A stretch of DNA of 61,982 nt from Thermoplasmata archaeon. Its GTDB lineage: Archaea; Thermoplasmatota; Thermoplasmata; Lutacidiplasmatales; UBA184. Location of the stretch: positions 1 through 61,982 of the forward strand of contig JAGWLG010000019.1 in assembly GCA_028864975.1 (NCBI GenBank), read 5' to 3'. Made by a program: the position numbers and the translations under genes. The notes under the pieces were generated by a model that searched no databases, was not told the origin of the DNA, and saw only the letters and a program-made list of their open reading frames with translations. Below are positions 30,322 to 59,226 of this stretch, piece by piece; the stretch's first letter is position 1; every line of letters begins with the position of its first letter.

Positions 30322-30570
30322 TACTGCCCCGAGACCTGCTCTAAGGGCAGGCCCTCCCTCCGAGGAACCCCGTGTCGAGAGGTCTCGGAGTAGTACCTTG
30401 CTGCACTCCGCAAGGGCGGCTGACCGGAGCTGCGCGGGCGGCGAGGTCGGACGTGGGTGAGACCGCGGAAGCGTAGGGCCGCGTGCCGCGCTTTCGCGTG
30501 GTGGTCGAAGGCCCCATGTTTGGCCGCCGCGAGTACGTATAAGAGCACGTTTCCCCCTATCGAAACCGGC

Positions 30571-33500
30571 ATGCGCCGACCGTTCCCCGGCCCTCTCGGT
30601 CCCACCTTTGGGGCAAGGTCCACCAGGGCCGGGGGAGGGCGCCGGCGGCGTGTGGCATCGGGCCGCAACAAGTTGAGCCCCACGGTCCGGGGCGTCCTCG
30701 TGCTCGGGGTGATGGGCTTGCTGGCTGTCTCGACCGCGCCGTGGGCCCTCCGCATCGGACCCGTCATTCCAGCCGCCACGCCACGTGCCGGACCTTCGCC
30801 GGTGCCCTCGATGGCCCGCCTCACGTCGGTCGCGGGCTCCGAGGTCGGGTCGTTCCTGCTCCCCTCATCGGCCTGTACGGCGGGGTACAACGGGACCTGC
30901 CCGCATCTCACCCCCTCGATCACTTCGAGCTCCCCGGTCATCTGTCGGGGTGGCTCCGCCTCCTGCCCTGGGGGGGCCCCCGACAATAGCCGTGTGACCC
31001 TCTGGGTGAACGCCACGGGCCACGAGTCGCTGGTCCCCCCCGTGATCCAGGTCGTGTTCGTCGTCGAGACCACCCCGTACGACGGGGTGTACGATGCGTC
31101 GGCGGGGGACCCCGGGACCGGGTGGTGCGGAGCACCCTGCAACGAGTCGAACGCGGTGCCCTTCTTTGTGGCGAACTCCGGACAGATCGCAACGGCGATC
31201 GCGAGCTCCTTCGGCGCGAGCACCAGCAGTTGCACCCCGGGGAGCCAAGAGGTGGTCTGTTTCGCGATGGTCGACTACTTCTCCACCGTCGGTGCGGACC
31301 ACGACGACGGGGACGGCTCGGAGTACAACCCCGACGTGACCACGTTCGTCCCCGCGGGGAGCTTCCAGTCGGCCGTCGCGGGCACGTTCCAGGCGCAGGT
31401 CCTGCAGGGCGGCTGGGTCCTACCCGACTCCGACCTCTCGGACAACATCCTCTCCAGTTCCTCGATCACCGCGCTCTACGGTGCACAGCGCGGCAGCGGT
31501 CTGGGGTGGGACTCGTCGGCCGACCACGTGCTGGTGCTCATCTCCTCCACCGCGCCGCGCGACAGCAACTACCTCGTGAACTATGCCGCGAGCTCTTCAG
31601 ACTATCCCAGCGGCATGAGCAGCGGATGCGAACCGGCCTACTTCTCTGGACAGCCGAACTGCTACAGCTGGGACAACGGGACGAGCTCGGTCGCCGGCTA
31701 CGCTCGGGCCAACAACATGGCCATCGACGTGATCGACCCCGCCAACGGGGTCACCAACGCGAGCTCGGGAGACTACCGGCACGTCGCGTCCGCCCAGACC
31801 GACGTCACGACGATCCTGCAGGCGGGCTGCGACCTGGCCACGGCGACCGGGGGAAGCTGGGAGGGACCGCACGGGAACTTCACCTGCGCCGCCTCCGCGA
31901 CCGGGACAGGGCACGGCAACCTGACCTGCATCACGGGCGGCTCCTGCATCACGAAGGGCACCGGGACGAACCCTGCGCGCGGGTGGTCGACCAACACCCC
32001 CTTAGGCTGGGCGCTGACCCACTTCAACCTGCCCGCGGGAGGACGCTCTTCGAACCTCACGGCCTCGGGCACGTCTCACGCCCCGTTCCAGTTCCTGCCG
32101 GCCGCCGGGCTCGTGATCAACGCCACGAACCCCGGCTACCAGGTCGTCGCCTGTTCGCGTACCGCGTCGAACCCACCCCTTCCGGGTCCCTGCAATGCCC
32201 TCCCCCTCGTGACCGGCCTCGGGCCTCAGCACAACGGGGTGGGGTGGGCCTGGCCGGACAACGCGATGTACCTCAACGACAGCTGGGCGATCTCCTTCAA
32301 CCTCGCGGCGAACGCTTCGTTCCCGACCTCGAAGCTCGGCCAAGCCCTCCCGCTCGACAGCTGTCAGAACCAGAGCTGGTGGCGAGGCTGCGCCCCCTAC
32401 TCCACGACCAGCTATTCGCAGCTCGACTACAATGCCTCGAACGGCGCCCCGGTGTCGCCGCCCCCCTCCTTCCCTCCGGCGTGGGTGAGCGTGGTCGCCA
32501 CCGTCGTACCGCTGGCGGCGACGGCCAGCTTCGTGTCGGGATCCGCCACCCCGCCGGACCCCGTCCAGTTCACAGGGACCGTCAGCGGGGGTCAACCCCC
32601 GTACACCTACCTCTGGAGCTTTGGCGACGGCTCGATCGGCTCCGCCGCCCTCGATCCGTCGCACACCTACAACGCCACCGGGACCTACCCCGCGCACTTC
32701 CTGGTCACGGACGCCGGGGGCGGACGAGCGGGCGCGTTCCTCAATGTTTCCGTGGGGACCGTTCCTCCCCTCACGGCCTCGGCCCAAGCCAACCCGACCG
32801 CGGGCGTTGCGCCTCTCGCCGTCCTGTTCTCCTCCTCGGCAGCTGGAGGTCGACCTCCCTACGCTTGGAGCTGGTCCTTCGGTGACGGCGGATCCGCCGC
32901 CACCCAGAACGCGACCCACACGTACTCGACCGTGGGCCAGTACGCCGTCGCCCTGACCGTGAGAGATGCCGCGGGGAGCGCCCTCACCCGTGGGCTGAAC
33001 GTGTCGGTCGAGCCCAACGCGCTCACGGCCTCGCTCCTGGCCACGCCCTCCAGCGGCACGCTCCCGCTCACCGTGGTCTTCAACGGTACGGCCGCCGGAG
33101 GGACCCCTGGCTACACGTTCTTGTGGGGGCTCGGGGACGGTTCCACCGGCTCGTTCGCTCGCAACCCGGTGCATGAGTACAACACCACCGGGACGTTCCA
33201 GGTGGACCTCACGGTCGCCGACCGTGCGGGCGCTTGGGTCCGCGTCTGGACGAACATTTCGGTCTCGACCTCGAGGGCCCCGTTGACGCTCTCGATCTCC
33301 GGGAGCCCGGTGAACGGGACGCCGCCGCTCCCCGTGCAGTTCCAGGCGAGCCCTCATGGCGGAGCCACACCGTACCTTCTCTCCTGGCGCTTTGCCGACG
33401 GGAGCCCGAGCGCGACCGGTCTCTCGCCGGCCCACACGTTCCAGATCGTGGGGACGTTCATCGTCAGAGCGTGGGCGAACGACTCATCGGTCCCCTCGCT

Positions 33501-34029
33501 CTCCGCGAACGCGACGCTCTGGATCACGGTGGGGGCGGGGGGTGGCGGGAGCTCGCCTTCGGTCACCCTCTCGGCGGTGCCCGACCCTGTGGCGGTCGGA
33601 GCCCCGCTGAACCTGAGCTCAGTGGCGAGCGGCGGTACCGCTCCCTACGCGTTCGCCTGGACGAACCTCCTCCCCGGCTGCCCGAGCGGGAGCCGTGCCG
33701 CGACTCTCCTCTGCGTGCCCACGCAGGCGGGCAACTTCTACGTCACCGTCATCGTGACCGACGCGGACGGGAAGACGGTCACCGCGACGACGGGTGTCGT
33801 GGTCGAAGCGCCCGCCCCCCCCGGGCCTCCGAACGGCCACACCATCGGACGGATCCTCGGCCAGGATCCTTGGATCGTTCTGACGGTCGTGGCGTTGCTC
33901 GTCTTGGCCACGGCCCTGATAGTCCTGTTCGCGCGAGGCAGGAAGAGGAAGGCCCTCACCGCACCCCAGGAAGGCCCGCTGCCGAGCCCTACGACGGCCC
34001 AGGGGAGCCCGACCTCCCCCAGCCCCTGA
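30571..34029 (+). CDS. Large surface protein: degenerate vWA-like domain, PKD repeats, C-terminal TM anchor
   Basis: Signal-like hydrophobic segment; four PPY/TPY..W.F(G/A)DG PKD-type repeats; TM followed by RGRKRK; TATAAG about 30 nt upstream of ATG 30571. Confidence 0.8.
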   Translation: MRRPFPGPLGPTFGARSTRAGGGRRRRVASGRNKLSPTVRGVLVLGVMGLLAVSTAPWALRIGPVIPAATPRAGPSPVPSMARLTSVAGSEVGSFLLPSSACTAGYNGTCPHLTPSITSSSPVICRGGSASCPGGAPDNSRVTLWVNATGHESLVPPVIQVVFVVETTPYDGVYDASAGDPGTGWCGAPCNESNAVPFFVANSGQIATAIASSFGASTSSCTPGSQEVVCFAMVDYFSTVGADHDDGDGSEYNPDVTTFVPAGSFQSAVAGTFQAQVLQGGWVLPDSDLSDNILSSSSITALYGAQRGSGLGWDSSADHVLVLISSTAPRDSNYLVNYAASSSDYPSGMSSGCEPAYFSGQPNCYSWDNGTSSVAGYARANNMAIDVIDPANGVTNASSGDYRHVASAQTDVTTILQAGCDLATATGGSWEGPHGNFTCAASATGTGHGNLTCITGGSCITKGTGTNPARGWSTNTPLGWALTHFNLPAGGRSSNLTASGTSHAPFQFLPAAGLVINATNPGYQVVACSRTASNPPLPGPCNALPLVTGLGPQHNGVGWAWPDNAMYLNDSWAISFNLAANASFPTSKLGQALPLDSCQNQSWWRGCAPYSTTSYSQLDYNASNGAPVSPPPSFPPAWVSVVATVVPLAATASFVSGSATPPDPVQFTGTVSGGQPPYTYLWSFGDGSIGSAALDPSHTYNATGTYPAHFLVTDAGGGRAGAFLNVSVGTVPPLTASAQANPTAGVAPLAVLFSSSAAGGRPPYAWSWSFGDGGSAATQNATHTYSTVGQYAVALTVRDAAGSALTRGLNVSVEPNALTASLLATPSSGTLPLTVVFNGTAAGGTPGYTFLWGLGDGSTGSFARNPVHEYNTTGTFQVDLTVADRAGAWVRVWTNISVSTSRAPLTLSISGSPVNGTPPLPVQFQASPHGGATPYLLSWRFADGSPSATGLSPAHTFQIVGTFIVRAWANDSSVPSLSANATLWITVGAGGGGSSPSVTLSAVPDPVAVGAPLNLSSVASGGTAPYAFAWTNLLPGCPSGSRAATLLCVPTQAGNFYVTVIVTDADGKTVTATTGVVVEAPAPPGPPNGHTIGRILGQDPWIVLTVVALLVLATALIVLFARGRKRKALTAPQEGPLPSPTTAQGSPTSPSP

Positions 34030-46122: not shown

Positions 46123-47742
46123 ATGTTGGCAGGAACCCCCATCTTGGTGCTGAAGGAAGGAGCCGAACGAGAGAAGGGCAAGGGCGCGGTGTCGAACAAC
46201 ATCGCGGCCGCTCGAGCGCTGGCGGATGCGGTCCGTTCGACGCTCGGTCCCCGCGGGATGGACAAGATGCTTGTCGATTCCATGGGCGACATCACGATCA
46301 CGAACGACGGCGTGACCATCCTCAAGGAGGTCGACGTCGAGCACCCCACCGCGAAGATGCTGGTGGAGGTCGCCAAGACGCAGGACCAGCAGTGCGGCGA
46401 CGGCACGACCACGGCGGTCGTGCTCTCCGGAGAGCTCCTGCGCCGCGCGGAGACCCTCATCGAACAGAACGTCCACCCCACGGTCATCACCCGTGGGTTC
46501 TCCATCGCCCGGGAAGAGGCCGAGCGCCTTCTCAAGGCCGAGGTCGGCCACAAGGTGAACCCCCAGGAGGAGCAGACCCTGATCGACGTGGCCGCGACGG
46601 CCATGGGAAGCAAGGGCGTCTACGGCTCGCGCGATGAGCTCGCGAAGCTCACGGTGAAGGCCGTGAAGGCGATCACGGAGCAGCGCGACGGGAAGCCCCT
46701 CGCGGACGTGAGCCTGATCCAGATCGAGAAGAAGCACGGCGGGACCATCGCCGACACCGAGCTGGTCCAGGGCATCCTCCTGGACAAGGAGCGCGGGCAT
46801 CCCCGGATGAACAAGCTGACGAAGGGAGCGAAGATCGCCCTCCTCAACAGCGCCCTCGAGATCAAGAAGACCGAGTTCGAGAGCAAGATCAGCATCAAGG
46901 CCCCCGGCCAGATCCAGAACTTCCTCGACCAGGAGGACAAGACCTTCCGCGAGATGGTCGACGCGATCAAGGCCTCCGGGGCCAACGTCGTCATCTGCCA
47001 GAAGGGCATCGACGATGTCGTCCTCCACTACCTCGCAAAGGCGGGGATCTTCGCCGTGAAGCAGGTGAAGGAGTCCGACATGCAGAAGCTCTCCCGCGCG
47101 ACCGGCGGAAAGGTCATCACCGGCTGGAAGGAGCTGAGCGCGAAGGACCTCGGGAACGCGGGGCAGGTCGAGGAGCGGCAGGTGGGGGATTCCCACATGA
47201 CGTTCGTCACCGACTGCCAGGGCGCGCGCAGCGTCTCGATCCTCATCCGGGGCGGGACGGAGCACGTGACCCAGGAGGTCGAGCGCTCGCTCCACGACTC
47301 GCTCAAGGTCGTCTCCTCCACCATCGAGGACGGGGTCGTCTGTCCCGGTGGCGGCGCGACGGAGATGGAGCTCGCGGTCCGACTGCGCAAGTTCGCCCCC
47401 ACCGTGGGCGGACGTGAGCAGCTCGCCGTGGAGGCCTTCGCTCAGGCGCTCGAGGTCGTCCCGTGGTCCCTCGCCGAGAACGGCGGGTATGACGCGATCA
47501 ACACGATCATCGACCTGCGGAAGGCCCACGAGGGCTCCGGCAAGAACCAGGGGATCAACTTCAAGGAGAACGGCCACCCCTCGGACATGATCACGCAGAA
47601 GGTCGTTGAACCCCTGCGCGTGAAGGCCCAGGCCATCAACTCCGCGACCGAAGTGGCGAACATGGTCCTACGCATCGACGACATTATCGCGTCGAAGAAG
47701 TCCTCCCCGTCGCCGCCCGGCGCGGGCGGCCACGGCCACTGA
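46123..47742 (+). CDS. ths: Thermosome subunit (group II chaperonin)
   Basis: TLGPRGMDKM, TNDG, GDGTTT, GGGA. Confidence 0.97.
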   Translation: MLAGTPILVLKEGAEREKGKGAVSNNIAAARALADAVRSTLGPRGMDKMLVDSMGDITITNDGVTILKEVDVEHPTAKMLVEVAKTQDQQCGDGTTTAVVLSGELLRRAETLIEQNVHPTVITRGFSIAREEAERLLKAEVGHKVNPQEEQTLIDVAATAMGSKGVYGSRDELAKLTVKAVKAITEQRDGKPLADVSLIQIEKKHGGTIADTELVQGILLDKERGHPRMNKLTKGAKIALLNSALEIKKTEFESKISIKAPGQIQNFLDQEDKTFREMVDAIKASGANVVICQKGIDDVVLHYLAKAGIFAVKQVKESDMQKLSRATGGKVITGWKELSAKDLGNAGQVEERQVGDSHMTFVTDCQGARSVSILIRGGTEHVTQEVERSLHDSLKVVSSTIEDGVVCPGGGATEMELAVRLRKFAPTVGGREQLAVEAFAQALEVVPWSLAENGGYDAINTIIDLRKAHEGSGKNQGINFKENGHPSDMITQKVVEPLRVKAQAINSATEVANMVLRIDDIIASKKSSPSPPGAGGHGH

Positions 47743-47839: not shown

Positions 47840-48232
47840 ATGCGAACCAAGAAGGCCGAGCGGGTCACCCGCTTCGACGTGATCGGTCTCGAGCCGAAGC
47901 CTGCCCTCTACATCTCCTACGACGGGTTGGGGAAGCTCTCGGAGCGCTCGCTTCTGCGGGATGTCTTGGAGGAGCTCCAGCGAAAGGGGGCCCCGGCGTA
48001 CACCGAGTTCCTGAAGTCCCTGCGTTCCCACCGTTCCGCCTACGTCCACGTCTACTTCTCCGATTACGTGAGCTATGGGATCGGAGGGGGCGATGCGACG
48101 GCCGAGTTCTTCTTCGGCACCTACCTCCTGCTCCACGACGCGGCCACGGGTGGGGAATCCGGCTCGCGCGAAGCGCTCACGCTCGTCCACCCCGCGGTCC
48201 GTCCCGAGCGCGTCGAGCTCGCCGAAGCGTAG
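47840..48232 (+). CDS. Hypothetical protein
   Basis: 130-aa ORF with typical codon usage; AT-richer promoter-like tract upstream (ccttttg). Confidence 0.6.
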   Translation: MRTKKAERVTRFDVIGLEPKPALYISYDGLGKLSERSLLRDVLEELQRKGAPAYTEFLKSLRSHRSAYVHVYFSDYVSYGIGGGDATAEFFFGTYLLLHDAATGGESGSREALTLVHPAVRPERVELAEA

Positions 48233-48481
48233 GGCCGGTTTTACCTCGAGAAAACGCGTCGTGGGACGCGTCCGCGGTCTCGAACGGCATCACGTTTATA
48301 TCATGCCGTGTGGTGGCGTGCCATACCTGGCGCTGACGGCGGTACCCTCGGAGGGAAGCGTCCTCTGGGAGCACTACCCGGGCGGCGCACGGGAGCGCAC
48401 ATCCCCGTGAAGGAGCTTCGGAGCCGAAGGTCAGAAAGTGCCGCCGTCGTGGGCGGCCTGACCCGTGGTGCCCGGGAGCTC

Positions 48482-50707
48482 GTGGAGCTTTCGAAGAAGG
48501 CTTTGCGTACGCTCGGCGTGCTCCTCCTGTTCGCGGCGGTGCTCTTCCTTGCGGTCCCCTCGGTCTCGGGCTCGCTCACCCATCCGAGCGCGGCCCTCCC
48601 CCATGAGGCCCCTGCCACCCTGGCGAAGGTGCTCTCCGAGAGGACCCCGACGCCCAAGGGCGTCCCAGCGGGCATGGTCAAGATGACCGCGGCCAACCAC
48701 CCCTGCTGGCCGATCAACAAGAACCAGACCGCCTGTATCCAGGTCGATGTGGCGAACTTCTCCCAGCCTGACGTGATCCCGGACCCCCGCTCGGGCGCGC
48801 TGAACACGAGCTGGAGGCTCTACCCTGCCGCGGACCAGGACATCCACTTCCAGGTCCTCTCGACCTACGACCTCGCGAACTGCAACATCTACAACCCCCC
48901 CGCCTGGATGGGCGGCTGCACGCCGGGGGCCAACGGGGGACCGGCGACAGGGCCGCAGGCGATGTACTCCGGGTGGGACGCCTACCTTTACCTGACCGTG
49001 GTCGACGTGATGTGGCAGGACGTCTGTTGGTTCTGCGACAACGACGGCACCCAGTGGCACGCGAACGCCGGTCAGACCTGGTCGCCCCAGGCGATGCACC
49101 CCTACAGCGGCGACGCGACGCACCGCTGGGTCGCGGACCTGAACATCTCCGCCTTCGGAGGTAATGGGGCCGAGAACTTCCCGAACGGCACGTGGGTGAT
49201 GTGGAACGTCTCGACGAACTACTGGAACGGGACCTCCTCGGGGGGACCGCTCAACATCATCCGGCAGTGCGCTCCGTCGTGCAGCGGTGGGGTCACGGCC
49301 GCACCGCAGATGTTCTACTACTTCACCCGGAACTTCTGGTACTACGACAGCGCCCCGCTCGGCGTGACGCCTCCGTACGGTCCCAACTACGCCAACATGG
49401 TCACGGGGGGCGGGCCGAACGCCTTCGCGGCCAATGTCAACTTATCCTACTTCCCGGTCGTACCGGCCATCGGCGACCAGGTCTTCGTGGACCTGAAGAC
49501 CCAGTCGGTCGAGAACTTCTCCGGCGGGGCGATCAACATCCGCGCGACGTTGATCGTGCTGAACGCTTGGTACCCCAACGGGACGTTCTGGAGGACGTGG
49601 GCGAGCGGCTTCACCCCTCTCGCCTATCCGTACAACAATACCTGGCACGCGAGGGTGACGTTACCCCTAGACTTCTTCGCCCATAGCGGGACGAGGGTCC
49701 AGTGGTTCATTCAGGCGTACGACTCGTACGGCCACATGGTGCAATCGCGGAACTTTACCCAGATCGTCTCGAAGATCGGGGAGTGTCCCAACGGCAATTT
49801 CACGGCTTGTCTCAACGTCACGACCGTCCCGCCGGCGATCGAGACCGAGGGATGGAAGGGCTGGCTCAATACGACACCCCCGAGCATCCCCGGGGTCGGG
49901 ATCAACCAGGACGTGAACGTCACGATCACGACCTTCAACCGTTCCGTCGACATCCAGGCGGCCTACATCATCATCCATGTCACCTACGCGACCACCGGGG
50001 GGTCGGGAGCCGCGTTATACACGATGCATCGGATCACGTTCAATCAGTACTACTTCGACATCCCCGGGCTGCCCGAAGGGAGCAACGTCACGTTCGTGAT
50101 CAAGGCCTACGACTTCAACCTGACCAACGTGCTCTCGCACCCGTACAAGTTCTTCGTCCCGTTCGAGGTCTTCCCCCCGGCCGCGTACTGCTTCTTCTAC
50201 ATCTTCGTTTACAACGCGGCGACGGACCAGCCGGTGAACGGGGCGAACGTCACGATCATCGGTCTCGCGGGGACGATCCATATCGCGACGGTCACTTCGC
50301 TCAATGGGGCGGCCTACCCCAACGTGACCGGGCAGCCTTGGACGCCGCGCTTCCTGCCCGCGAACAACTCCTTCACGATCCGGGTCCAGATCCGCGGGTT
50401 CGTGGGGGTGGGTCTGGCGCCGCCGGATACCATCCGAACCAACTTGTTCTGCACCCACGTGATGAACAAGACCCAGGTCCTGGCCCAGACCTCGAACTAC
50501 CAGGCCGTGCTCAAGAACAGCGTGCTCAACATCACGATCAACTCGCCCCCTCCGCCCCCGATCTTCTCCGCGGCGGTGTTCCCGGGCATCGGGGTGGGCG
50601 TCGCGGGAGGGATGATCGCGACCGGGGTCATCCTGATCCCGGTGTACCTCTACTGGCGGAAGCTCCGTGAGGTCGCGGAGGCCGAGGAGAAGCGGATCAC
50701 GCTATGA
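48482..50707 (+). CDS. Surface protein 1 with signal peptide, C-terminal TM and AEEKRITL tail
   Basis: MELSKKALRTLGVLLLF signal (GTG 48482), many N-x-S/T sequons, Ig-like segments, TM followed by WRKLREVAEAEEKRITL. Confidence 0.82.
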   Translation: MELSKKALRTLGVLLLFAAVLFLAVPSVSGSLTHPSAALPHEAPATLAKVLSERTPTPKGVPAGMVKMTAANHPCWPINKNQTACIQVDVANFSQPDVIPDPRSGALNTSWRLYPAADQDIHFQVLSTYDLANCNIYNPPAWMGGCTPGANGGPATGPQAMYSGWDAYLYLTVVDVMWQDVCWFCDNDGTQWHANAGQTWSPQAMHPYSGDATHRWVADLNISAFGGNGAENFPNGTWVMWNVSTNYWNGTSSGGPLNIIRQCAPSCSGGVTAAPQMFYYFTRNFWYYDSAPLGVTPPYGPNYANMVTGGGPNAFAANVNLSYFPVVPAIGDQVFVDLKTQSVENFSGGAINIRATLIVLNAWYPNGTFWRTWASGFTPLAYPYNNTWHARVTLPLDFFAHSGTRVQWFIQAYDSYGHMVQSRNFTQIVSKIGECPNGNFTACLNVTTVPPAIETEGWKGWLNTTPPSIPGVGINQDVNVTITTFNRSVDIQAAYIIIHVTYATTGGSGAALYTMHRITFNQYYFDIPGLPEGSNVTFVIKAYDFNLTNVLSHPYKFFVPFEVFPPAAYCFFYIFVYNAATDQPVNGANVTIIGLAGTIHIATVTSLNGAAYPNVTGQPWTPRFLPANNSFTIRVQIRGFVGVGLAPPDTIRTNLFCTHVMNKTQVLAQTSNYQAVLKNSVLNITINSPPPPPIFSAAVFPGIGVGVAGGMIATGVILIPVYLYWRKLREVAEAEEKRITL

Positions 50708-53394
50708 GCGAGAACATCCGACGGCTCCTGGGTCTGTCGCTCTTCCTCCTGATGGCGTTGCTGATCCTCGTTCCGACGGGGGCGGGCCTTGCGGTCTTCC
50801 AGGCGCCCACCTCCGACGCGTCCCCCACCGCGGGCGCTGCCGCTCAGCCGACGATGGTGACCCTGCCCTCTCATCACCTTCGGTCGGACCCTTCGTCACC
50901 CACGACCTCCTCTACGACGGGCCCGGCTCCCCGCTCGACCCCCACCGGTCCCTGCGCCCCGAGCAGTCCCTCCGCCATCGCCTGGGCCAACAACGTCACG
51001 ACCACGATCAGCTTGTTCGGCGCTTCCCAGGTCGTCCCCTACGTGAACTCCGTGAGCGGTTACGCCCGCTCGGTCCAGGTCACCATCCAGACCCCGGCGA
51101 ACGTGCCCATTGAGCAGGCCGAGATCACGGTCTGGGCGGTGGGCTGGAACAACCAGTCGCTCAATTCGACCCTCCCCAACGCCCCGGGCGTCTTCTCCAT
51201 GACGGTGGACCAGAATGTTCCCACGAAGAACATCGCCACCGGTCAGCTGAACGATTTCAAGTTCTTCCCGCCGGGCTCGACCGTCTACTTCAACATGAGC
51301 CTGGTCCAGAACGTGACGGACCCGAGCAACTGGACCTCCCCCTGCTGGGCGGGCGCCTTCAACGCCCCCTGGAACCCGGCCCCCGCCGCGCCGGCGCCGC
51401 AACCCACCTGGGCCTACCGCATCGGGAACGGCTGGCCGAGCCCGGTCTTCGAGAACGACATCCAGATCACCGCGACGCCCAACGTCATGAACGGCGTCCA
51501 ACCGGACCCCTTCCAGTCCGTCTATTTCTACCTCAACTCCAGCAAGATCAACATGAACATCGGGGGTCCGCTCGGGGGAGCCCGGCTCTACTACTTCCTC
51601 CACAATCGCACATGCGACAACAAGAACGCCCAAGGCTGCCCGGGTGGGGCCTCGTTCTGCAGCGCGAACGCGACCTTCGAGGTCTCCTGCTACGGCGGGG
51701 TCCCCACGGGGGTGGGGCCGTTCTATGAGGCGGGGGACGTCATCGACTTCTATTTCGAGGCCTTCATCTCGAACGACGTCGGGGTCTACAACAAGATCTT
51801 CTCAAGGTCGTACTCCTACACCGTAAGCGCCGGAGGCACTTGGTGTCAACCCGATAGCGGGTACAACTTCTATGGGTGGTCCGGGAGCGCGCTCCCACCC
51901 TACAACGTTCCCGACCCGACGAACCATCCCACGTGGGTGAACAACGGGAACTACTCCGGCCGCGCGGACCCGGTCACGCTGAACCTCTCCGGCCCGGTGA
52001 CCGAGATCGCGGTGTACAACGCGGTGGGCTCGGCTCCCGCCTTTGCCTCCGCTTCGCTCGTGGACCCGAGCCAGGTCGTTGCGCCTCACCCCGGTATCCT
52101 CCTGCCTGCCCCCCCCGCCGCTCCGGTCGTGCCCAACATCGCTGGGAACACCCTGGTCACGTTCACCGAGACCGGCCTTCCCGCGGGGACGGTCTGGTCC
52201 GTCCTCTTCGGGACGCAGAACGTCTCCTCACCGACGGCCTCGATCTCGTTCAGCGTGGCGGCGGGCCAGAACTACTCCTACACCGTCACGACCCCGATCT
52301 CCGCGGGGAAGGTCTTCGTCCGGTACGTGGCCTCCCCCTTCGCCGGGTGGTTCTACGTCGGAGGCTCTCCGGTCTCCCAGGGCATCAACTTCACCGCGCA
52401 GGTCTACCTGGACATCATCCAGAGCCCGTGGAACGCGGGGAACGTCTCGACGAACCCCACGGCCTACGGCCGCAACTCGGGGTGGTACGACAACAACTCG
52501 GAAGTGACGCTCACCGCGATCGGGTACTTCGGCTTCCCCTACTTCCTGATCCTGAGCGCGGGGCACTCCGTGCCCTTCCCGATGACCTACGTCATCTCTT
52601 CGAGCACGAACGACTCCGTCATCCCCGCCTTCGGAGGCATCCTGAACCTGACGATCTCCAGCCGAAACACGACGACGGCGATCGCCTACGCCTACGTCTT
52701 CTTCAACGAGACCTACAACGGCCAGGCGCTCTCCGGCGTCGTGCTGATGAACGAAGAGAACTCGACGGTCTTCTACACCGGGGACGGAACCCAGATCAAC
52801 GACCCCTCCGACATCGGGCCCTTCCCTCCCGGGGTGAACATCACGCTCTTCGTGCTCGCCTACGACGAGCTGGGGTGTCCGCTGCGGTCGGACACCTACC
52901 ACTTCCACACCGAGACCGGCACGCCACCCACCGTCGACTCCCGGACGTTCTTCTACGTCGTGGTGTACGACGAGGCGAAGAACCAGTACATCCCCAACGT
53001 GCCGGTGAACATGTCCAACGCGACCTGGTGGGACATCTGCTTCACCAACACGTTCGGGTTCTGCTACCCGAACGCCACCTACTCGTCGACGCCGCTCTAC
53101 CTCTCCTACGGGTGGTACAACGTCACCGTGCAGTACGACGGGCAGGTCCAGAGCGTCTCGTACTACCTCAATCCGACCTCGAACAAGACGCTGACGTTCA
53201 TCTTCAATTCGGCGGAACACCATCCGCCAATCTACTCGGAGCCGACGCAGGGGTTCTCGCCGTACCCGCCGTACGCCCCGTTACCGCTGCTCTTAGGGCT
53301 CATCCTAGCGGGAGCGCTCGGCATTCCGATCGTGCTCATGTGGCTCGAGCAGCGGCGCAAGGCGGCCGCCGAGGAGAAGCGCATCACCCTGTAG
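50704..53394 (+). CDS. Surface protein 2 with signal peptide, thermopsin-type repeat, C-terminal TM and AEEKRITL tail
   Basis: Signal peptide, VTFTETGLPAGTVWSV repeat, TM followed by WLEQRRKAAAEEKRITL; ATGA overlap with the previous gene. Confidence 0.85.
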   Translation: MSENIRRLLGLSLFLLMALLILVPTGAGLAVFQAPTSDASPTAGAAAQPTMVTLPSHHLRSDPSSPTTSSTTGPAPRSTPTGPCAPSSPSAIAWANNVTTTISLFGASQVVPYVNSVSGYARSVQVTIQTPANVPIEQAEITVWAVGWNNQSLNSTLPNAPGVFSMTVDQNVPTKNIATGQLNDFKFFPPGSTVYFNMSLVQNVTDPSNWTSPCWAGAFNAPWNPAPAAPAPQPTWAYRIGNGWPSPVFENDIQITATPNVMNGVQPDPFQSVYFYLNSSKINMNIGGPLGGARLYYFLHNRTCDNKNAQGCPGGASFCSANATFEVSCYGGVPTGVGPFYEAGDVIDFYFEAFISNDVGVYNKIFSRSYSYTVSAGGTWCQPDSGYNFYGWSGSALPPYNVPDPTNHPTWVNNGNYSGRADPVTLNLSGPVTEIAVYNAVGSAPAFASASLVDPSQVVAPHPGILLPAPPAAPVVPNIAGNTLVTFTETGLPAGTVWSVLFGTQNVSSPTASISFSVAAGQNYSYTVTTPISAGKVFVRYVASPFAGWFYVGGSPVSQGINFTAQVYLDIIQSPWNAGNVSTNPTAYGRNSGWYDNNSEVTLTAIGYFGFPYFLILSAGHSVPFPMTYVISSSTNDSVIPAFGGILNLTISSRNTTTAIAYAYVFFNETYNGQALSGVVLMNEENSTVFYTGDGTQINDPSDIGPFPPGVNITLFVLAYDELGCPLRSDTYHFHTETGTPPTVDSRTFFYVVVYDEAKNQYIPNVPVNMSNATWWDICFTNTFGFCYPNATYSSTPLYLSYGWYNVTVQYDGQVQSVSYYLNPTSNKTLTFIFNSAEHHPPIYSEPTQGFSPYPPYAPLPLLLGLILAGALGIPIVLMWLEQRRKAAAEEKRITL

Positions 53395-53434
53395 CGGAGC
53401 GCATCAGGATTCACCCCAAAGGAAGGAGACGAAC

Positions 53435-56400
53435 ATGGCCTACGGAGGACAAGGAACGCCGCCGAACCAGTACCGACCGCGACCCCAGGGACAGGTGGGG
53501 AACCCCTACGACGTGATGGGGGGCTTCTTCCCGGTCTCCGCGCCCGGGGCCCGCCCACCTCCGCCCCAGGGTTCTCCATACGCCCCCGTCCCGGCCCGTC
53601 CTGGCTATCCTCCCCAGTACCGGCCGGTGCCCGTGCGGCCCCCGGTCCAGCCGTACCCCGCGGGAGGGCGACCCCCGCCGGGGGCGCTGGCGGTCCCGCC
53701 GAGGGGAGGGCCCCCTCAGGCCGGGCGGCCTCCCGCGCCGAAGAAGAAGAAGGGCTACTCGAAGGAGGAGATGGTCTTCATCGCGCTCGGGATCGGACTC
53801 ATCCTGGTCGGGGGGTTCCTGATCCCGACGTTCAACCTTCTGATGAACGTCCAGTCGGCCGGACAGTTCATCGCCAACACGAACGCGGGCTACCTGCCGA
53901 ACTCGGGCACGCAGGCCATCCAGCTGACCGCGGGGACGGTCCAACCTGGTCAGACGATCATGATCATGGACCAGATTGCCACGATCAAGTACCTTCCCGT
54001 CCAGCAGATCACGACCATCAATTACACCAGCATCTCTCCGCAGGACAACCAGCACCTGGACATCGCGCAGAAGCTCTTTGGGGTCTTCAGCGGGAACCTC
54101 CAGAACCAGTACAACTTCCAGGTCGGGCAGTATGTCCTGCTCACCTTCAAGGTCGTCTCGGCGACGGTCCCCGGGAACCCCAACGGCTCGTCCTACCTGA
54201 CCCTGGACGCGGCGTGGCAGGCCAGCTGGAACGCCTTCGACAACAGCTTCACGGGGCTCAAGGCCTTCTCGCTCGACCCTGCGGTCATCCAGCCGTACCC
54301 CGCCCCGCTGTACGATGGCCTCTTCGTGGCCATGATCGTCGCGGGGGCCGGGCTGCTCCTGGTCGCGATGATGTGGCCGAAGCGGCTCAAGCTCTTCTTC
54401 AAGATCTCGACCAAGGACCCGCAGCACCTCGTTCCCGTGGTGATGTTCTTCCTTTCGATCCTCTGCATGGTCTTCCTGCCGTTCTACCCGTGGTGGATGG
54501 TCCTGATCTTCTCCGTCCTGCTCGCTTTCACGGCCCACAAGATGCCGCAGCTGGCGGTCATCCTGTTAGGGATGCTCATGCTGGCCGAAGTGGGCTACCA
54601 GGCCCCCGAGCTGGCGCTCATCTTCGTCTTCGGGCTTCTGCCGCTCTTGGGCGCGACCCTGGTGGACTGGCGGATCGGCCTGGGGGGCATGTTCGTCATC
54701 GCGCTCGCGCCCTACGGGCTCTCGTTCATCGTGCCGATCATGATGGCGATGATCTTCTCGCTCATGCTCGGCGTGGCCGTCGCGGCCGCTGGGGGGCTCG
54801 TCCTCTCCATCTTCGTGACCCTCGGGAACTTCCCGGTGCTGGGCTGGATGGTCGGGAACGCCCACTCGGGGCTTCCCACGTACGTGAACGGGCATCCCCA
54901 GGACCTGGCCCCCGTTCGGTGGAACTGGTCCTTCGCGGACCTCTGGAACGCCTACGCGAACGTCGCGAGCCCGAACGGCGTGGTCCTATCCACGGGATCC
55001 CAGGGCATCGAGGCGTTCTGGTCCCCCCTCACCATGATCGCGGTCTGGTGCGTCGCCGCCTGGCTCGCGCACCTCCTGATCCTGGACCGCACCAAGATGA
55101 CCCCTGCCCGCTGGGCGAAGCACTCCTTGGTCGGGGGCGGCATGATCACGGGGGTCGCCTTCGGCGAGCTGGTGGCCTTCAGCCAGTTCCAGGGCGCGGC
55201 CGGCATCCTGGTCATCGGGATCATCCCCGCGATGCTTTGCGCGACGGCCGCCGGGATGGTGCTGCGCGAGACGTTCCAGGCCTACTTCACGAGCAAGCTG
55301 GGCGGGACCGCGGTCGGTACACGTATCGCCGAGATGGCCACCCTCCACAAGGTCTCTTTCGAGATGGTGGGCGGACTGGGCGACGTGAAGGCCGACATCA
55401 AGGAGTCGATGATCATCCCGCTGATGAGGAAGGACGTGACCAGCAAGTTCGGGCTCGAGCCCCCGAAGGGGATCCTGCTGTTCGGGCCACCCGGCTGCGG
55501 GAAGACCATGCTCATGAAGGCGCTCGCGAACGAGCTGGGCGTCGAGATGATCTCGGTCAAGTGCTCGGACCTGATGAGCAAGTGGTACGGTGAGTCCGAA
55601 GGGAAGGTCGCCGAGCTGTTCAAGACGGCCAAGGAGCGGGCACCCTGCATCCTGTTCATGGATGAGGTCGACGCGCTCGCCAAGCGTCGCGACATGTACA
55701 GCGCGGACGATGTGTCGCCCCGTCTGTTGTCCATCATGCTGAGCGAGATGGACGGCATGGACAAGACCGGCGGGGTCATCATCGTGGCCACCACGAACAA
55801 GCCCGAGATGATCGACCCGGCCATGATGCGTCCTGGGCGTCTGGACAAGATCATCTACGTGCCGCCGCCCGACTTCAACGAGCGGGCCGACGTCATCAAG
55901 GTCCACCTGTTCGGTAAGCCGGTCTCGCCCGACATCGACCTGACCGAGATCGCGAAGAAGACCGAGCGGTTCTCGGGCGCCGACCTGGCGAACCTCGTGC
56001 GTGAGGCCGCGACGATCGCGATGAAGCGCTCGATGATGACCGGGGTCGCCTCGATCATCTCGATGGAGGACTTCCGGACCGTCATGCCCCGCATCAAGCC
56101 CTCGATCTCGCTGAGGATGATCGAGGAGTACGAGCGGCTCAAGATGGACTTCGAGCGTAAGATGCACCAGGTCCAGCGGGCCGAGCGCAAGGTCGTCGTG
56201 AAGTGGGACGACGTGGGCGGGCTCGAGGACATCAAGAAGGCGCTCAAGGAGTACGTCGAGCTGCCGCTGACCAAGCCCGAGCTGATGGAGGAGTACAAGC
56301 TCAAGACCGGACGCGGGATCCTGCTGTTCGGTCCGCCGGGATGCGGGAAGACCCACATCATGCGGGCCGCGTCCAACGAGCTCAACGTGCCCATCCAGAT

Positions 56401-57100
56401 CGTGAACGGTCCCGAGCTCGTGAGCGCTCTCGCCGGTCAGAGCGAGGCCGCCGTGCGCGACATCCTCTACCGGGCGCGTGAGAACTCGCCGTCGATCGTC
56501 TTCTTCGATGAGATCGATGCGCTCGCGAGCAAGGAGTCGATGAAGACCCCCGAGGTCTCGCGTGCTGTGAGCCAGTTCCTGACGGAGATGGACGGGATCA
56601 AGCCCAAGGACCGGGTCATCATCGTCGCGACGACGAACCGGCCGCAGATCCTGGACCCTGCCCTGCTGCGTCCGGGACGCTTCGACAAGATCTTCTACGT
56701 GCCCCCGCCGGACCTGAAGGCCCGCTCGGACATCTTCAAGATCCATCTGAAGGGCGTTCCGACGGACGGCGAGGTCGACTACGACCTCCTGGCTCTTGGG
56801 ACCGAAGGGTACTCCGGCGCCGACATCGCTTCGATCGTCGACGAGGCGAAGCTCATCGCGCTACGCGAGCAGCTCCGCAACGAGATGGGCGGCCACGGAG
56901 CTCCTCTGGGCTCTGGACCCCAGATGCAGCTGCAGCAGTTCCTGGAGCGCGGCGCGGGAGCCGGAGCGGCGAGCCGCCGGGTCATCGGGGTCAAGATGGC
57001 GAACCTGCTCGAGGCCATCGGGAAGACCAAGAGCTCGGTCACGCCCGAGACGCTGGAGTGGGCGCAGTCCTTCATCCAGACCTACGGAACGCGGCAGTAA
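53435..57100 (+). CDS. Polytopic membrane protein fused to tandem CDC48-like AAA+ domains
   Basis: About 12 hydrophobic segments, then two modules with GPPGCGKT, Walker B (FMDEVD, FFDEID) and SRH (RPGRLD, RPGRFD). Confidence 0.9.
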   Translation: MAYGGQGTPPNQYRPRPQGQVGNPYDVMGGFFPVSAPGARPPPPQGSPYAPVPARPGYPPQYRPVPVRPPVQPYPAGGRPPPGALAVPPRGGPPQAGRPPAPKKKKGYSKEEMVFIALGIGLILVGGFLIPTFNLLMNVQSAGQFIANTNAGYLPNSGTQAIQLTAGTVQPGQTIMIMDQIATIKYLPVQQITTINYTSISPQDNQHLDIAQKLFGVFSGNLQNQYNFQVGQYVLLTFKVVSATVPGNPNGSSYLTLDAAWQASWNAFDNSFTGLKAFSLDPAVIQPYPAPLYDGLFVAMIVAGAGLLLVAMMWPKRLKLFFKISTKDPQHLVPVVMFFLSILCMVFLPFYPWWMVLIFSVLLAFTAHKMPQLAVILLGMLMLAEVGYQAPELALIFVFGLLPLLGATLVDWRIGLGGMFVIALAPYGLSFIVPIMMAMIFSLMLGVAVAAAGGLVLSIFVTLGNFPVLGWMVGNAHSGLPTYVNGHPQDLAPVRWNWSFADLWNAYANVASPNGVVLSTGSQGIEAFWSPLTMIAVWCVAAWLAHLLILDRTKMTPARWAKHSLVGGGMITGVAFGELVAFSQFQGAAGILVIGIIPAMLCATAAGMVLRETFQAYFTSKLGGTAVGTRIAEMATLHKVSFEMVGGLGDVKADIKESMIIPLMRKDVTSKFGLEPPKGILLFGPPGCGKTMLMKALANELGVEMISVKCSDLMSKWYGESEGKVAELFKTAKERAPCILFMDEVDALAKRRDMYSADDVSPRLLSIMLSEMDGMDKTGGVIIVATTNKPEMIDPAMMRPGRLDKIIYVPPPDFNERADVIKVHLFGKPVSPDIDLTEIAKKTERFSGADLANLVREAATIAMKRSMMTGVASIISMEDFRTVMPRIKPSISLRMIEEYERLKMDFERKMHQVQRAERKVVVKWDDVGGLEDIKKALKEYVELPLTKPELMEEYKLKTGRGILLFGPPGCGKTHIMRAASNELNVPIQIVNGPELVSALAGQSEAAVRDILYRARENSPSIVFFDEIDALASKESMKTPEVSRAVSQFLTEMDGIKPKDRVIIVATTNRPQILDPALLRPGRFDKIFYVPPPDLKARSDIFKIHLKGVPTDGEVDYDLLALGTEGYSGADIASIVDEAKLIALREQLRNEMGGHGAPLGSGPQMQLQQFLERGAGAGAASRRVIGVKMANLLEAIGKTKSSVTPETLEWAQSFIQTYGTRQ

Positions 57101-57157
57101 GCTGGCGAGAAGAGCGGAGGCCGGGCGCGAGACAGGACAGAGGGAGGAGGAAGCACC

Positions 57158-57628
57158 ATGGATATCCCTCTGTTCGGCCTCGCGCTGCTCACCTTCGCCA
57201 TCCTCTACCTGGGGCTCTCGGTCTTCCTGCTCTGGACCCTGGTGATCACAGGTTTCATCCTGATGGCCTGGCTCGCCATCCGGTGGAGGGCTGTGGGGGA
57301 GAACTACCCCCACGGTCTCGGCGACTCGCTGACGCTCTTGGTCCTGGTCTCGATCACCTGGATCCTTTTCGTCTTCCTGGGGCCGAAGGAGTGTAGCTAC
57401 TACACGTGCAACGGGAGCAACGACGGGGTCCCGTTCATGGGGAACGGCCTGACCTATATCGACCCCCCTTGGCACGTGATCACGGAGATCTTGATCTTCT
57501 TCATCTTCCTGATCCTGATCCTCTTCGCCGTCATCATCCCCGTGCTCCAGCACCGCATGACGCTCGGCGGCGGTGGGGGCGGCGATGAGGGTGGCGGCAA
57601 GGGCAAGGTCGGCGTGGGGGCCGGCTGA
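57158..57628 (+). CDS. Small multi-pass membrane protein with Gly-rich tail
   Basis: 3-4 hydrophobic segments; strong GGAGGAGG SD; follows the AAA+ gene. Confidence 0.8.
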   Translation: MDIPLFGLALLTFAILYLGLSVFLLWTLVITGFILMAWLAIRWRAVGENYPHGLGDSLTLLVLVSITWILFVFLGPKECSYYTCNGSNDGVPFMGNGLTYIDPPWHVITEILIFFIFLILILFAVIIPVLQHRMTLGGGGGGDEGGGKGKVGVGAG

Positions 57629-57681: not shown

Positions 57682-59226
57682 GTGGGTCCCGTCGTGCCTA
57701 GCGGGGAGACGCTCACCGAGGAACGTCGGTCCAAGCGCGACCGCCTGAAGGCCTCGGGGGGCCTCGCTTACCCCTACGGTTTCCCCGGCCGCGTGCCGCT
57801 CGCCTCCGTGCGGAGCGAGCTCGCGACCCAGCCACCGGGGAGCGAGCTCGCGGGCGTCTCGCGACGGGTCGCGGGACGTGTCCAAACGATACGGCAGCAC
57901 GGGAAGACCGCCTTCGTGCCGCTGCGGGACCAGAGCGGGGAGCTCCAGCTCTTCCTCCGCGTGGACGACCTCGGCGAGAAGGGCTACCAGACCGCGCTGG
58001 ACACCCTCGACCCGGGAGACCTCGTCGGCGCCGAAGGGGTCCCGGTGGTCACGCGACGAGGGGAGCCCTCGATCCGCGCCACCTCGGTCGTCCTTCTGGC
58101 CAAGGCGCTGCGTCCCCCGCCGGAGAAGTGGCACGGACTGCAGGACCCGGAGGCCCGGCTTCGGCAACGCTACGTCGACCTCCTCTCATCCCCCGAGGTC
58201 GTCCGCACGTTCGAGGGCCGCTCGGCCCTCGTCGCGGAGATGCGGCGCTATCTCTCCGCCCAGGGCTTTCAGGAGGTCGAGACCCCGGTCCTGGGCCGGG
58301 TCGCCTCGGGGGGGTTGGCGCATCCGTTCGTGACCCACTATCGCTTCCTCGAGGAGGACTTCCGCCTCCGGGTCGCGCTGGAGCTCCCCCTCAAGCGGCT
58401 CCTCGTCGGGGGTATGGAGCGGGTCTTCGAGATCGGGAAGGTCTTCCGGAACGAGGACTTGGACGCGGACCACAGTCCCGAGTTCACGATGATGGAGCTC
58501 TACTGGGCCTACGCGGACTACACCGACGTCCGCAAGCTCGTGGAGGGCCTGACCCAGGACCTCGCGAAAGCGGCCGCCCCCTTCCTCCCGAAGGAAGAAG
58601 CGGAGGCCCGCGTCCGCGACTTCACGCCCCCCTACCCCACGGTGGACTACGTCGAGGCGCTCGAGAAGGAGAGTGGTATCTCCGGCATCGTCGAGCTCCC
58701 CCGGGAGCGCCTGGTCGAGCTCGCCCGCGCTGCGGGGGCGAAGGTCCCGGAGTCGATGAGCCACGGGGGCGCGCTGGACAAGCTCTTCGGCCACTACGTG
58801 GAGTCGCGCCTGGTCCACCCGACCTTCGTCCTCGACTACCCGCTCGAGACCACGCCGCTCGCGAAGCGCCACCGCTCTAAGCCCGGTCGTGTCGAGCGGT
58901 TCGAGCTCTTCTATCGAGGAATGGAGCTCGGGAACGCCTACAGCGAGCTCAACGACCCCGACGACCAGGAGGAGCGGTTCCGCGCCCAGCTCCCACCGCC
59001 GGCCGCCGGTGGCGGTGAGGGGGAGGAGAGCTACGCCTACGACGAGGATTTTGTCGAAGCCCTTCGATATGGCATGCCGCCGGCGGGGGGATTGGGCATG
59101 GGGGTCGACCGTCTTGCCATGGCGTTCTTGGGACGTCCCTCGATCAAGGACGTGATCCTGTTCCCGCCCACCCGCTCGCTCAAGAGCTCGGGACCGACAC
59201 CCGCCCCAGGGGCCGGGGCGTCGTAG
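57682..59226 (+). CDS. lysS: Lysyl-tRNA synthetase, class II
   Basis: OB anticodon-binding domain, RQRYVDL, FRNE..D..HSPEFTMME, GMPPAGGLGMGVDRL. Confidence 0.95.
   Translation: MGPVVPSGETLTEERRSKRDRLKASGGLAYPYGFPGRVPLASVRSELATQPPGSELAGVSRRVAGRVQTIRQHGKTAFVPLRDQSGELQLFLRVDDLGEKGYQTALDTLDPGDLVGAEGVPVVTRRGEPSIRATSVVLLAKALRPPPEKWHGLQDPEARLRQRYVDLLSSPEVVRTFEGRSALVAEMRRYLSAQGFQEVETPVLGRVASGGLAHPFVTHYRFLEEDFRLRVALELPLKRLLVGGMERVFEIGKVFRNEDLDADHSPEFTMMELYWAYADYTDVRKLVEGLTQDLAKAAAPFLPKEEAEARVRDFTPPYPTVDYVEALEKESGISGIVELPRERLVELARAAGAKVPESMSHGGALDKLFGHYVESRLVHPTFVLDYPLETTPLAKRHRSKPGRVERFELFYRGMELGNAYSELNDPDDQEERFRAQLPPPAAGGGEGEESYAYDEDFVEALRYGMPPAGGLGMGVDRLAMAFLGRPSIKDVILFPPTRSLKSSGPTPAPGAGAS

Follow-up and report, generated by a model that had tools for sequence, protein, structure and literature searches.

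Several AAA motors are known that work at membranes on short segments of other proteins. In FtsH and the m-AAA and i-AAA proteins, a hexameric classical AAA ring is tethered close beneath the membrane, its pore turned towards the bilayer, and acts on the cytoplasmic tails of membrane proteins; to our knowledge, FtsH is generally absent from archaea. Pex1/Pex6 with Pex15 (Pex26), Msp1/ATAD1, and Cdc48 with Hrd1 in endoplasmic-reticulum-associated degradation (ERAD) likewise work at membranes and engage short cytoplasmic segments, Pex1/Pex6 being a double-ring type-II motor that is held at the membrane by its tail-anchored partner. CbbX, the red-type Rubisco activase, is a AAA hexamer that transiently pulls the C-terminal tail of RbcL and thereby remodels a stable partner without degrading it. 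Here we describe a four-gene unit located on the plus strand at positions 48482-57628 of contig JAGWLG010000019.1 (assembly GCA_028864975.1; the stretch analysed, 61,982 nucleotides long, is referred to as the window) from an uncultured soil archaeon of the Thermoplasmata. The first two genes, g1 and g2, encode large exported proteins that end in the same eight residues, AEEKRITL; g3 encodes a membrane-embedded protein with two AAA+ domains, and g4 encodes a small membrane protein. The four products may constitute one dedicated transmembrane machine. In the literature that we searched, no AAA motor that forms an integral part of the archaeal membrane has been described.

The g3 protein resembles VAT/Cdc48/p97 (for instance, VAT of T. 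acidophilum, PDB 5g4g and 5vc7) in its tandem classical AAA domains with lids, its Walker A and B motifs and arginines, and its KW-aromatic-G pore loop. Unlike these proteins, it has a membrane domain of ~540 amino acids instead of the N domain (double-psi barrel and beta-clam), both of its rings are D2-like, its aromatic pore loop is in ring 1 rather than in D2, and it is integral to the membrane and has dedicated co-encoded partners. It differs from FtsH and the m-AAA and i-AAA proteins in the lack of an M41 protease domain, in having two rings, and in having ~10 transmembrane segments instead of two. Pex1/Pex6, Msp1, and Cdc48-Hrd1 are soluble or single-pass motors that need adaptors or ubiquitin and whose range of clients is broad or different; g3, in contrast, is a polytopic motor for which the candidate clients are two paralogues, encoded in the same unit, that carry a genome-unique tag. 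CbbX is soluble, has a single ring, and acts on an unrelated substrate. The nearest published idea is the predicted archaeal "secretion system" of arCOG01314, in which a AAA+ ATPase is encoded with Ig- or S-layer-like, VWA, and small membrane proteins (Makarova et al. 2015, PMC5898192). A VWA protein and a giant Ig protein are also encoded in some relatives of our unit (type B, below), but the ATPase of the arCOG01314 neighbourhood is of the soluble MoxR/GvpN type; it is no polytopic AAA fusion protein, and a C-terminal tag has not been described for that system (PMC5898192). No publication on the unit itself was found, in agreement with the statement in the initial annotation that no described archaeal system has this layout.

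The proteins encoded by g1 and g2 each comprise a signal peptide, a large ectodomain, a single C-terminal transmembrane helix, and a short cytoplasmic tail, and in both the C-terminal order is transmembrane helix, tryptophan, basic stretch, AEEKRITL, and stop codon. The eight tail codons of the two genes differ at three synonymous sites, and therefore the shared tail is no recent copy. An alignment of 63 unique tails gave the consensus R-[IV]-T-L-COOH, with arginine at position -3 in 62, threonine at position -1 in 61, and leucine at position 0 in 61; position -2 was isoleucine or valine, position -4 was lysine or arginine, and glutamate occupied position -6 in 56. Variants were rare (R-I-S-L, K-V-T-L, and one tail with an extra glycine), and the spacing of the tail from the aromatic residue that closes the transmembrane helix was ungapped in the alignment. 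The mean pairwise identity was 0.64 over the last eight columns, compared with 0.29 for the ectodomain and 0.28 for the transmembrane helix, which indicates that the tail is under purifying selection. A six-frame scan of the 3.6-Mb assembly (G000) found the tag on g1 and g2 only, the sole other match to the regular expression being a KRITV ending of a 103-amino-acid frame. When a degenerate DNA pattern for the tag and stop codon was used, two true sites were found in each of five genomes (G000, G140, G290, G023, and G112), all of them in the two genes adjacent to the ATPase gene, with no match for the reversed control and a single false match, which ends in TGG.

The linkage of the tag-ended proteins with the ATPase is much closer than the initial annotation could reveal. 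A word-based search with the membrane domain of g3 returned 28 proteins, every one of which comes from a metagenome assembly of Thermoplasmata or Thermoplasmatota, and the contigs of relatives keep the order of two large unannotated proteins, the ATPase, and a small protein despite differing flanks. A scan limited to one genome per species returned 68 loci, 65 of which are titled Thermoplasmata, Thermoplasmatota, or Lutacidiplasmatales, including Candidatus Lutacidiplasma silvani and many acid-soil assemblies; of the other three, two bear the title Methanobacteriota archaeon, and the third, a contig of 4 kb (L087), has the label "bacterium". Two tag-ended paralogous open reading frames (ORFs) lie directly upstream of the ATPase gene in 34 of the 36 loci with enough upstream DNA, the exceptions being one frameshifted locus and one distant member without the tag, and an orthologue of g1 was found in every locus of type A. 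For co-occurrence, two queries, the membrane domain of the ATPase and the module of the tail proteins, were run against the same 301 class-level genomes. In the family to which the window belongs, both parts were found in 16 genomes, neither part in 19, and the tail proteins alone in none; the ATPase was found alone in two genomes, in both of which it is cut by a contig end. The tally includes one unpublished genome (G212), without which the number of genomes with both parts drops by one and on which none of the conclusions depends by itself. Tail proteins without the ATPase, which would have spoken against a functional link, were thus seen neither in this comparison nor in the pattern search of five genomes.

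The two glycoproteins had initially been regarded as dissimilar over most of their length. This holds for their N-terminal halves, which could not be aligned, but the last ~260 residues are homologous (BLASTP: 28% identity, E 1e-9; alignments A2 and A3). The AlphaFold 2 (AF2) model of this C-terminal module of g2 (me808fb5410d7), built on an alignment of 58 sequences, contains two beta-sandwiches, a short stalk, and an uninterrupted helix (residues 224-257 of the modelled piece) that comprises both the transmembrane segment and the tail, only the last three tail residues being free. According to Foldseek, the sandwiches are of the generic Ig/CnaB type also found in pilins, adhesins, and the SlaB stalk, and searches of Pfam, NCBIfam, and PDB sequences gave no match for g1 or g2. 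N-glycosylation sequons number 24 in g1 and 27 in g2 (~3 per 100 amino acids), compared with 0.38 for the genome background and 0.25 for g3, and both proteins are predicted from these sequence features to be glycosylated surface subunits.

The g3 protein belongs to the classical AAA family, with two matches to PF00004 (E 4.5e-85) and two to AAA_lid_3, and both rings carry Walker A and B, the sensor-1 asparagine, the two arginines of the second region of homology, and pore loop 1. The two rings share 46% identity, and each is most similar to the D2 ring of the Cdc48 that the genome itself encodes. VAT was the best PDB sequence match (E 6e-135); the scores for the Cdc48/VAT/p97 family TIGR01243 (539.3 bits, cut-off 802.65), of which the D2 half was matched best, and for the FtsH family TIGR01241 (463 bits, cut-off 600) both fell below the cut-off, and there was no match to Peptidase_M41. 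Because both rings are D2-like and the Cdc48 and FtsH scores are below their cut-offs, the sequence evidence indicates that g3 represents a separate lineage of double-ring AAA proteins and not a Cdc48 with an added membrane anchor. The initial description of the rings as CDC48-type was therefore apt as far as two classical, Cdc48 D2-like rings are concerned, but not for the protein as a whole, which has no Cdc48 N domain. The two rings differ in their conservation. In ring 1, the pore loop and catalytic motifs are invariant in all of the 26 sequences compared, which represent every type. Ring 2, by contrast, is complete in type A alone; in types B and C, Walker A and B and the pore loop have been lost. 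It is thus the membrane-adjacent ring that serves as the universal engine, and its substrate-gripping loop is, as judged from the alignment, under strict selection.

The part of g3 that precedes the rings has ~10 hydrophobic segments between residues 113 and 609, arranged as a first transmembrane segment, a small beta-rich ectodomain, and a polytopic core in which some polar residues are invariant; a strongly conserved linker then leads to ring 1. A cytoplasmic head of low complexity, rich in proline, glutamine, and tyrosine, stands before the first transmembrane segment (residues 1-105, positions 53435-53750 on the plus strand), and since it is missing in several orthologues (e.g., P0011 and P0018), it lies outside the conserved core. 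Apart from a chance match to TraT, residues 1-640 had no Pfam match at E<=1. Structural searches brought up no convincing relative of the membrane domain: it found nothing in the PDB at E<=1e-3 with Foldseek, where weak OB-like matches were confined to the small ectodomain, and nothing usable in the ESM Atlas, either by features or by shape. In the VIA wide search, the top match to the polytopic core had a Z score of 8.3 (146 residues, root-mean-square deviation 5.2), which is under the stated noise level for helical bundles; several S components of ECF transporters, which are six-helix bundles, were among the best rows. The domain is also rare: among 1.84 billion cluster representatives, a profile search with a threshold of E<=1e-3 found only 65 proteins, and many of these are fragments. 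Homology of the small ectodomain of g3 with the module of g1 and g2 was considered and rejected (hhalign probability 2.7%).

More remote genomes of the class contain the same polytopic core and double AAA region in other layouts. Loci of type B encode a giant Ig-repeat surface protein, a VWA protein, an ATPase of ~1300 amino acids, and a small membrane protein homologous to g4. The N-terminus of the type-B ATPase comprises a signal sequence, one extra sandwich domain, and a complete module of the g1/g2 type including the anchor helix, and this fused module directly precedes the polytopic core (hmmsearch E 6e-33 to 9e-25). In type C, a protein of ~350 amino acids with two copies of the first sandwich domain is encoded immediately upstream of an ATPase of ~890 amino acids. 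The occurrence of the same parts in split and fused form is the strongest evidence that g1 and g2 may be physical partners of g3, with their anchors probably beside its membrane domain. The fusion in type B argues for permanent subunits and favours a stable complex of motor and surface subunits over an ERAD-like disposal. That the genes form one dedicated system, as initially proposed, is borne out by the strict adjacency, the co-occurrence, the two tails per genome, and this domain fusion. A sister clade, g42 (L095-L098; G+C content 0.45), has kept the four-gene layout, the C-terminus of the ATPase, and the g4-type partner. As a separate observation, one type-B ATPase (L010 11108-15262, from a 3.2-Mb genome) ends with a SAP motif (PF02037, E 8e-6), a nucleic-acid- or protein-binding module that is unexpected on a membrane AAA protein.

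We propose that g4 is an accessory membrane subunit. Searches of Pfam, NCBIfam, and PDB sequences with g4 gave nothing, and homologues were found after the ATPase gene in the clade of the window, in the g42 clade, and in type-B loci (hmmsearch E 1e-9 to 1e-18). In most loci that resemble those of the Lutacidiplasmatales, a protein of 115-125 amino acids with no detectable relationship takes the place of g4. Because the tail is constant in clades with two unrelated small partners, g4 is unlikely to be the tail receptor. The replacement protein carries the motif P-S-F-E-[IV]-Y and is followed by a PKD-domain protein of ~1250 amino acids (L006 13524-17617, L007 3629-7824, and many of L033-L094). 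In the g42 clade, the second glycoprotein has an ending, ...GLA-x-GG, that resembles the Gly-rich C-terminus of the small partner. In some relatives, a third transmembrane protein, ending in G-x-G-R-F-E-COOH, is encoded upstream of the unit (L003 517-2805, L006 3896-6037). It was rejected as a core part of the unit in the window, where it belongs to a family with at least seven copies in G000 and is not adjacent; one of these paralogues is a PKD-domain surface protein of 1190 amino acids at positions 30457-34029 of the window (plus strand).

Taken as a model, six copies of g3 would assemble into a membrane-embedded hexamer, as inferred from classical AAA proteins, with the two rings hanging into the cytoplasm, and its polytopic domain would be the surface on which the anchor helices of g1 and g2 pack. 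Beyond the membrane, each anchor is predicted to extend into the cytoplasm as a rigid helix of ~17 residues with a free R-I-T-L-carboxylate end, and this geometry would place the tag at the membrane-facing side of ring 1, the ring that is universally intact and has the invariant aromatic pore loop. The tag would then be a coupling element that is docked or gripped by ring 1, and ATP hydrolysis would act as a pull on the anchors, so that work is passed across the membrane to the ectodomains. The output would be the remodelling, switching, or assembly of surface proteins and not their destruction. We consider the odds about even that g1-g4 form a stable complex in which the tails are coupled to ring 1 and the ectodomains are pulled in an ATP-driven manner.

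Several observations weigh against this model. The topology of g3 and the reach of the tail to the pore hinge on the AF2 model of its membrane domain (ma63ada312b83), which has a predicted local distance difference test (pLDDT) score of 73.6 and disordered loops. No segment of the ATPase that co-varies with the tail type was found; the linker between the membrane domain and ring 1 is uninformative in this respect because it is conserved in all types. The glycoproteins of the g42 clade end in ...SLVK and ...GLA-x-GG, the length of the tail being kept and its sequence changed, and types B and C have no tag of the R-I-T-L type. Since the tails of the g42 clade differ, the tag is specific to one order-level clade, and the expectation that the tail would be conserved in orthologues was realised in that clade, within which the membrane domain of the ATPase diverges to ~36% identity, and not beyond it. 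Furthermore, the unit occurs patchily within one genus (12 of 28 species) and is therefore accessory and dispensable, so that its role could be niche-specific.

The foremost alternative, which we regard as unlikely though worth serious attention, is a dislocase or turnover machine of the FtsH, Msp1, or ERAD kind, in which ring 1 would thread a degron-like tag and extract g1 and g2, the polytopic domain would serve as the exit channel, and the result would be removal or replacement of the coat. Such a role would suit a membrane-adjacent ring with an invariant aromatic pore loop, like those of FtsH and Cdc48 D2, and a tag that is a short, free, hydrophobic C-terminus on a tail of ~17 amino acids; ssrA-type C-terminal tags and the tail-length requirement of FtsH follow a similar logic. 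Moreover, both rings are predicted from their motifs to be active in type A. However, the covalent fusion of the module to the motor in type B argues for a permanent subunit, neither a conserved protease domain in g3 nor a neighbouring protease gene in the loci of relatives was found, and the full extraction of an ectodomain of ~700 amino acids with ~3 sequons per 100 amino acids is hard to picture. A machine devoted to destroying exactly two co-encoded proteins would also be unusual. The ERAD-like extraction or turnover envisaged in the initial annotation has thus become less likely.

A second possibility, speculative and unlikely, takes the stable complex further, to a prokaryotic ATP-driven transmembrane actuator in which the membrane-embedded AAA+ hexamer would pull on the rigid cytoplasmic tails and so move or switch surface glycoproteins from within the cell, as part of an adhesion, surface-remodelling, or gliding device of Thermoplasmata. 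Its logic would be like that of Mycoplasma mobile, with an ATPase inside the cell and legs on the surface, but the two systems are unrelated.

Third in order, and in our judgement improbable, is a tail that acts independently of the rings by pairing the anchors of g1 and g2, capping the helix, fixing the topology, or binding another cytoplasmic factor, while the ATPase works elsewhere, e.g., on other surface proteins. The restriction of the tag to two tails per genome, solely beside the ATPase gene and never without the ATPase, is difficult to reconcile with this explanation, as are the retention of the same tag by two paralogues that have otherwise diverged to ~25-30% identity and the position of g3 as the sole conserved cytoplasmic gene of the unit. 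The failure to find a co-varying ATPase segment and the use of the same layout with other tails in the g42 clade are what would be expected from it, and ligands of class-II PDZ domains likewise end in hydrophobic-x-hydrophobic-COOH.

The weakest of the explanations weighed, and the most improbable, is a biogenesis chaperone comparable to Bcs1 or assembly AAA proteins, by which g1 and g2 would be transiently inserted, folded, or oligomerised and then released: AAA proteins often serve as assembly factors, the tight gene spacing and predicted co-transcription would fit, and in the related arCOG01314 "secretion" loci, too, a AAA protein is paired with surface proteins of the Ig and VWA kinds (PMC5898192), but proteins that have an ordinary Sec signal peptide and one anchor, as g1 and g2 do, need no special insertase, and the type-B fusion implies permanent association.

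Other candidates were rejected outright. Archaeosortase/exosortase signals such as PGF-CTERM have their motif at the outer side of the transmembrane segment, which only a basic cluster then follows, and are carried by many substrates per genome; a general sorting signal of this kind was ruled out by the two copies per genome and the cytoplasmic motif, and no protein of the unit matched a CTERM family in NCBIfam. A MoxR-VWA system does not apply, as g3 is a classical AAA protein and not MoxR/AAA_3, and a VWA partner is present in type-B relatives only. A defence role was rejected because the similarity to TRIP13 and to IetA, the ATPase of the anti-phage system Iet (IetA-IetS), is limited to the generic AAA core; moreover, there is no protease partner like IetS, and the flanks are housekeeping genes. 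A mobile element was ruled out because the flanking thermosome and aspartyl-tRNA synthetase genes are syntenic in relatives down to ~48% identity.

The coordinates of the unit and its parts are listed in Table 1. The arrangement agrees with that read initially from the DNA, namely four co-oriented, closely spaced genes, two of them encoding exported proteins with the shared tail, followed by a polytopic protein with two AAA domains (g3) and a small membrane protein (g4). The gaps are 40 nucleotides between g2 and g3 and 57 nucleotides between g3 and g4, with a GGAGG-like motif before each of the latter two genes. The reading frame of g1 is open from 48308, and its start was set at the GTG at 48482 because this gives a typical signal peptide and a length equal to that of the closest orthologue. 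The AT-rich octamer upstream of g1 is plausibly the TATA box of the unit, as inferred from its sequence and setting. The unit is bounded by a thermosome gene (46123-47742) and an aspartyl-tRNA synthetase gene (57682-59226).

Table 1. Features of the four-gene unit, with positions in the window
Feature	Position	Strand	Remarks
Candidate archaeal TATA box, TTTATATC	48295-48302	+	no other AT-rich octamer between thermosome gene and start of g1; region of 65% GC
g1, predicted exported type-I membrane glycoprotein, 741 amino acids	48482-50707	+	signal peptide, C-terminal transmembrane helix, cytoplasmic tail of 17 amino acids
g1, C-terminal module common to g1 and g2	49925-50704	+	two beta-sandwich domains, stalk, transmembrane helix, tail
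g1 tail, last eight codons (AEEKRITL)	50681-50704	+	stop codon 50705-50707; pattern match G000:C73:50684-50707
g2, predicted paralogous exported type-I membrane glycoprotein, 896 amino acids	50704-53394	+	start overlaps the g1 stop codon (ATGA)
g2, C-terminal module	52612-53391	+	AF2 model me808fb5410d7, mean pLDDT 86.8
g2 tail, last eight codons (AEEKRITL)	53368-53391	+	stop codon 53392-53394; pattern match 53371-53394
g3, membrane-embedded double AAA+ ATPase, 1221 amino acids	53435-57100	+	PF00004 matched twice, each AAA domain with a lid
g3 membrane domain, residues 100-640	53732-55354	+	alignment A1; AF2 model ma63ada312b83, pLDDT 73.6
g3 AAA ring 1 (D1), membrane-adjacent	55307-56149	+	intact Walker A/B, arginine fingers, aromatic pore loop KWYGESE
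g3 AAA ring 2 (D2)	56150-57004	+	intact Walker motifs, non-aromatic pore loop
g4, small membrane protein, 156 amino acids	57158-57628	+	3-4 hydrophobic segments; Gly-rich C-terminus, last residues VGAG

Two further observations concern the flanks. An ORF of 130 amino acids without a Pfam match lies between the thermosome gene and g1 (47840-48232, plus strand); it is kept at the same position in the closest relatives (L001 and L002, 4368-4757) and is absent from remoter loci. Furthermore, ARAGORN called a 95-nucleotide tRNA-Gly(GCC) at 59083-59177 (plus strand), inside the 3' end of the aspartyl-tRNA synthetase ORF, which could reflect either an intron-bearing tRNA with an overcalled ORF end or a spurious call.

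What is new in this work is the statistics of the tag, the tests of its exclusivity and of co-occurrence, the finding of other tails in the g42 clade, and the difference in conservation between the two rings. The unit is a marker of uncultured Thermoplasmata from acid soil and sediment. It also offers a small, genetically closed test system, which consists of one motor, two candidate clients with a genome-unique end-tag of four residues, and one accessory protein, and for which the natural fused and split forms are a guide to the design of constructs. Such a system could reveal how a AAA ring engages the tails of membrane proteins, and whether a motor of this kind is able to perform mechanical work at the cell surface instead of degrading proteins.

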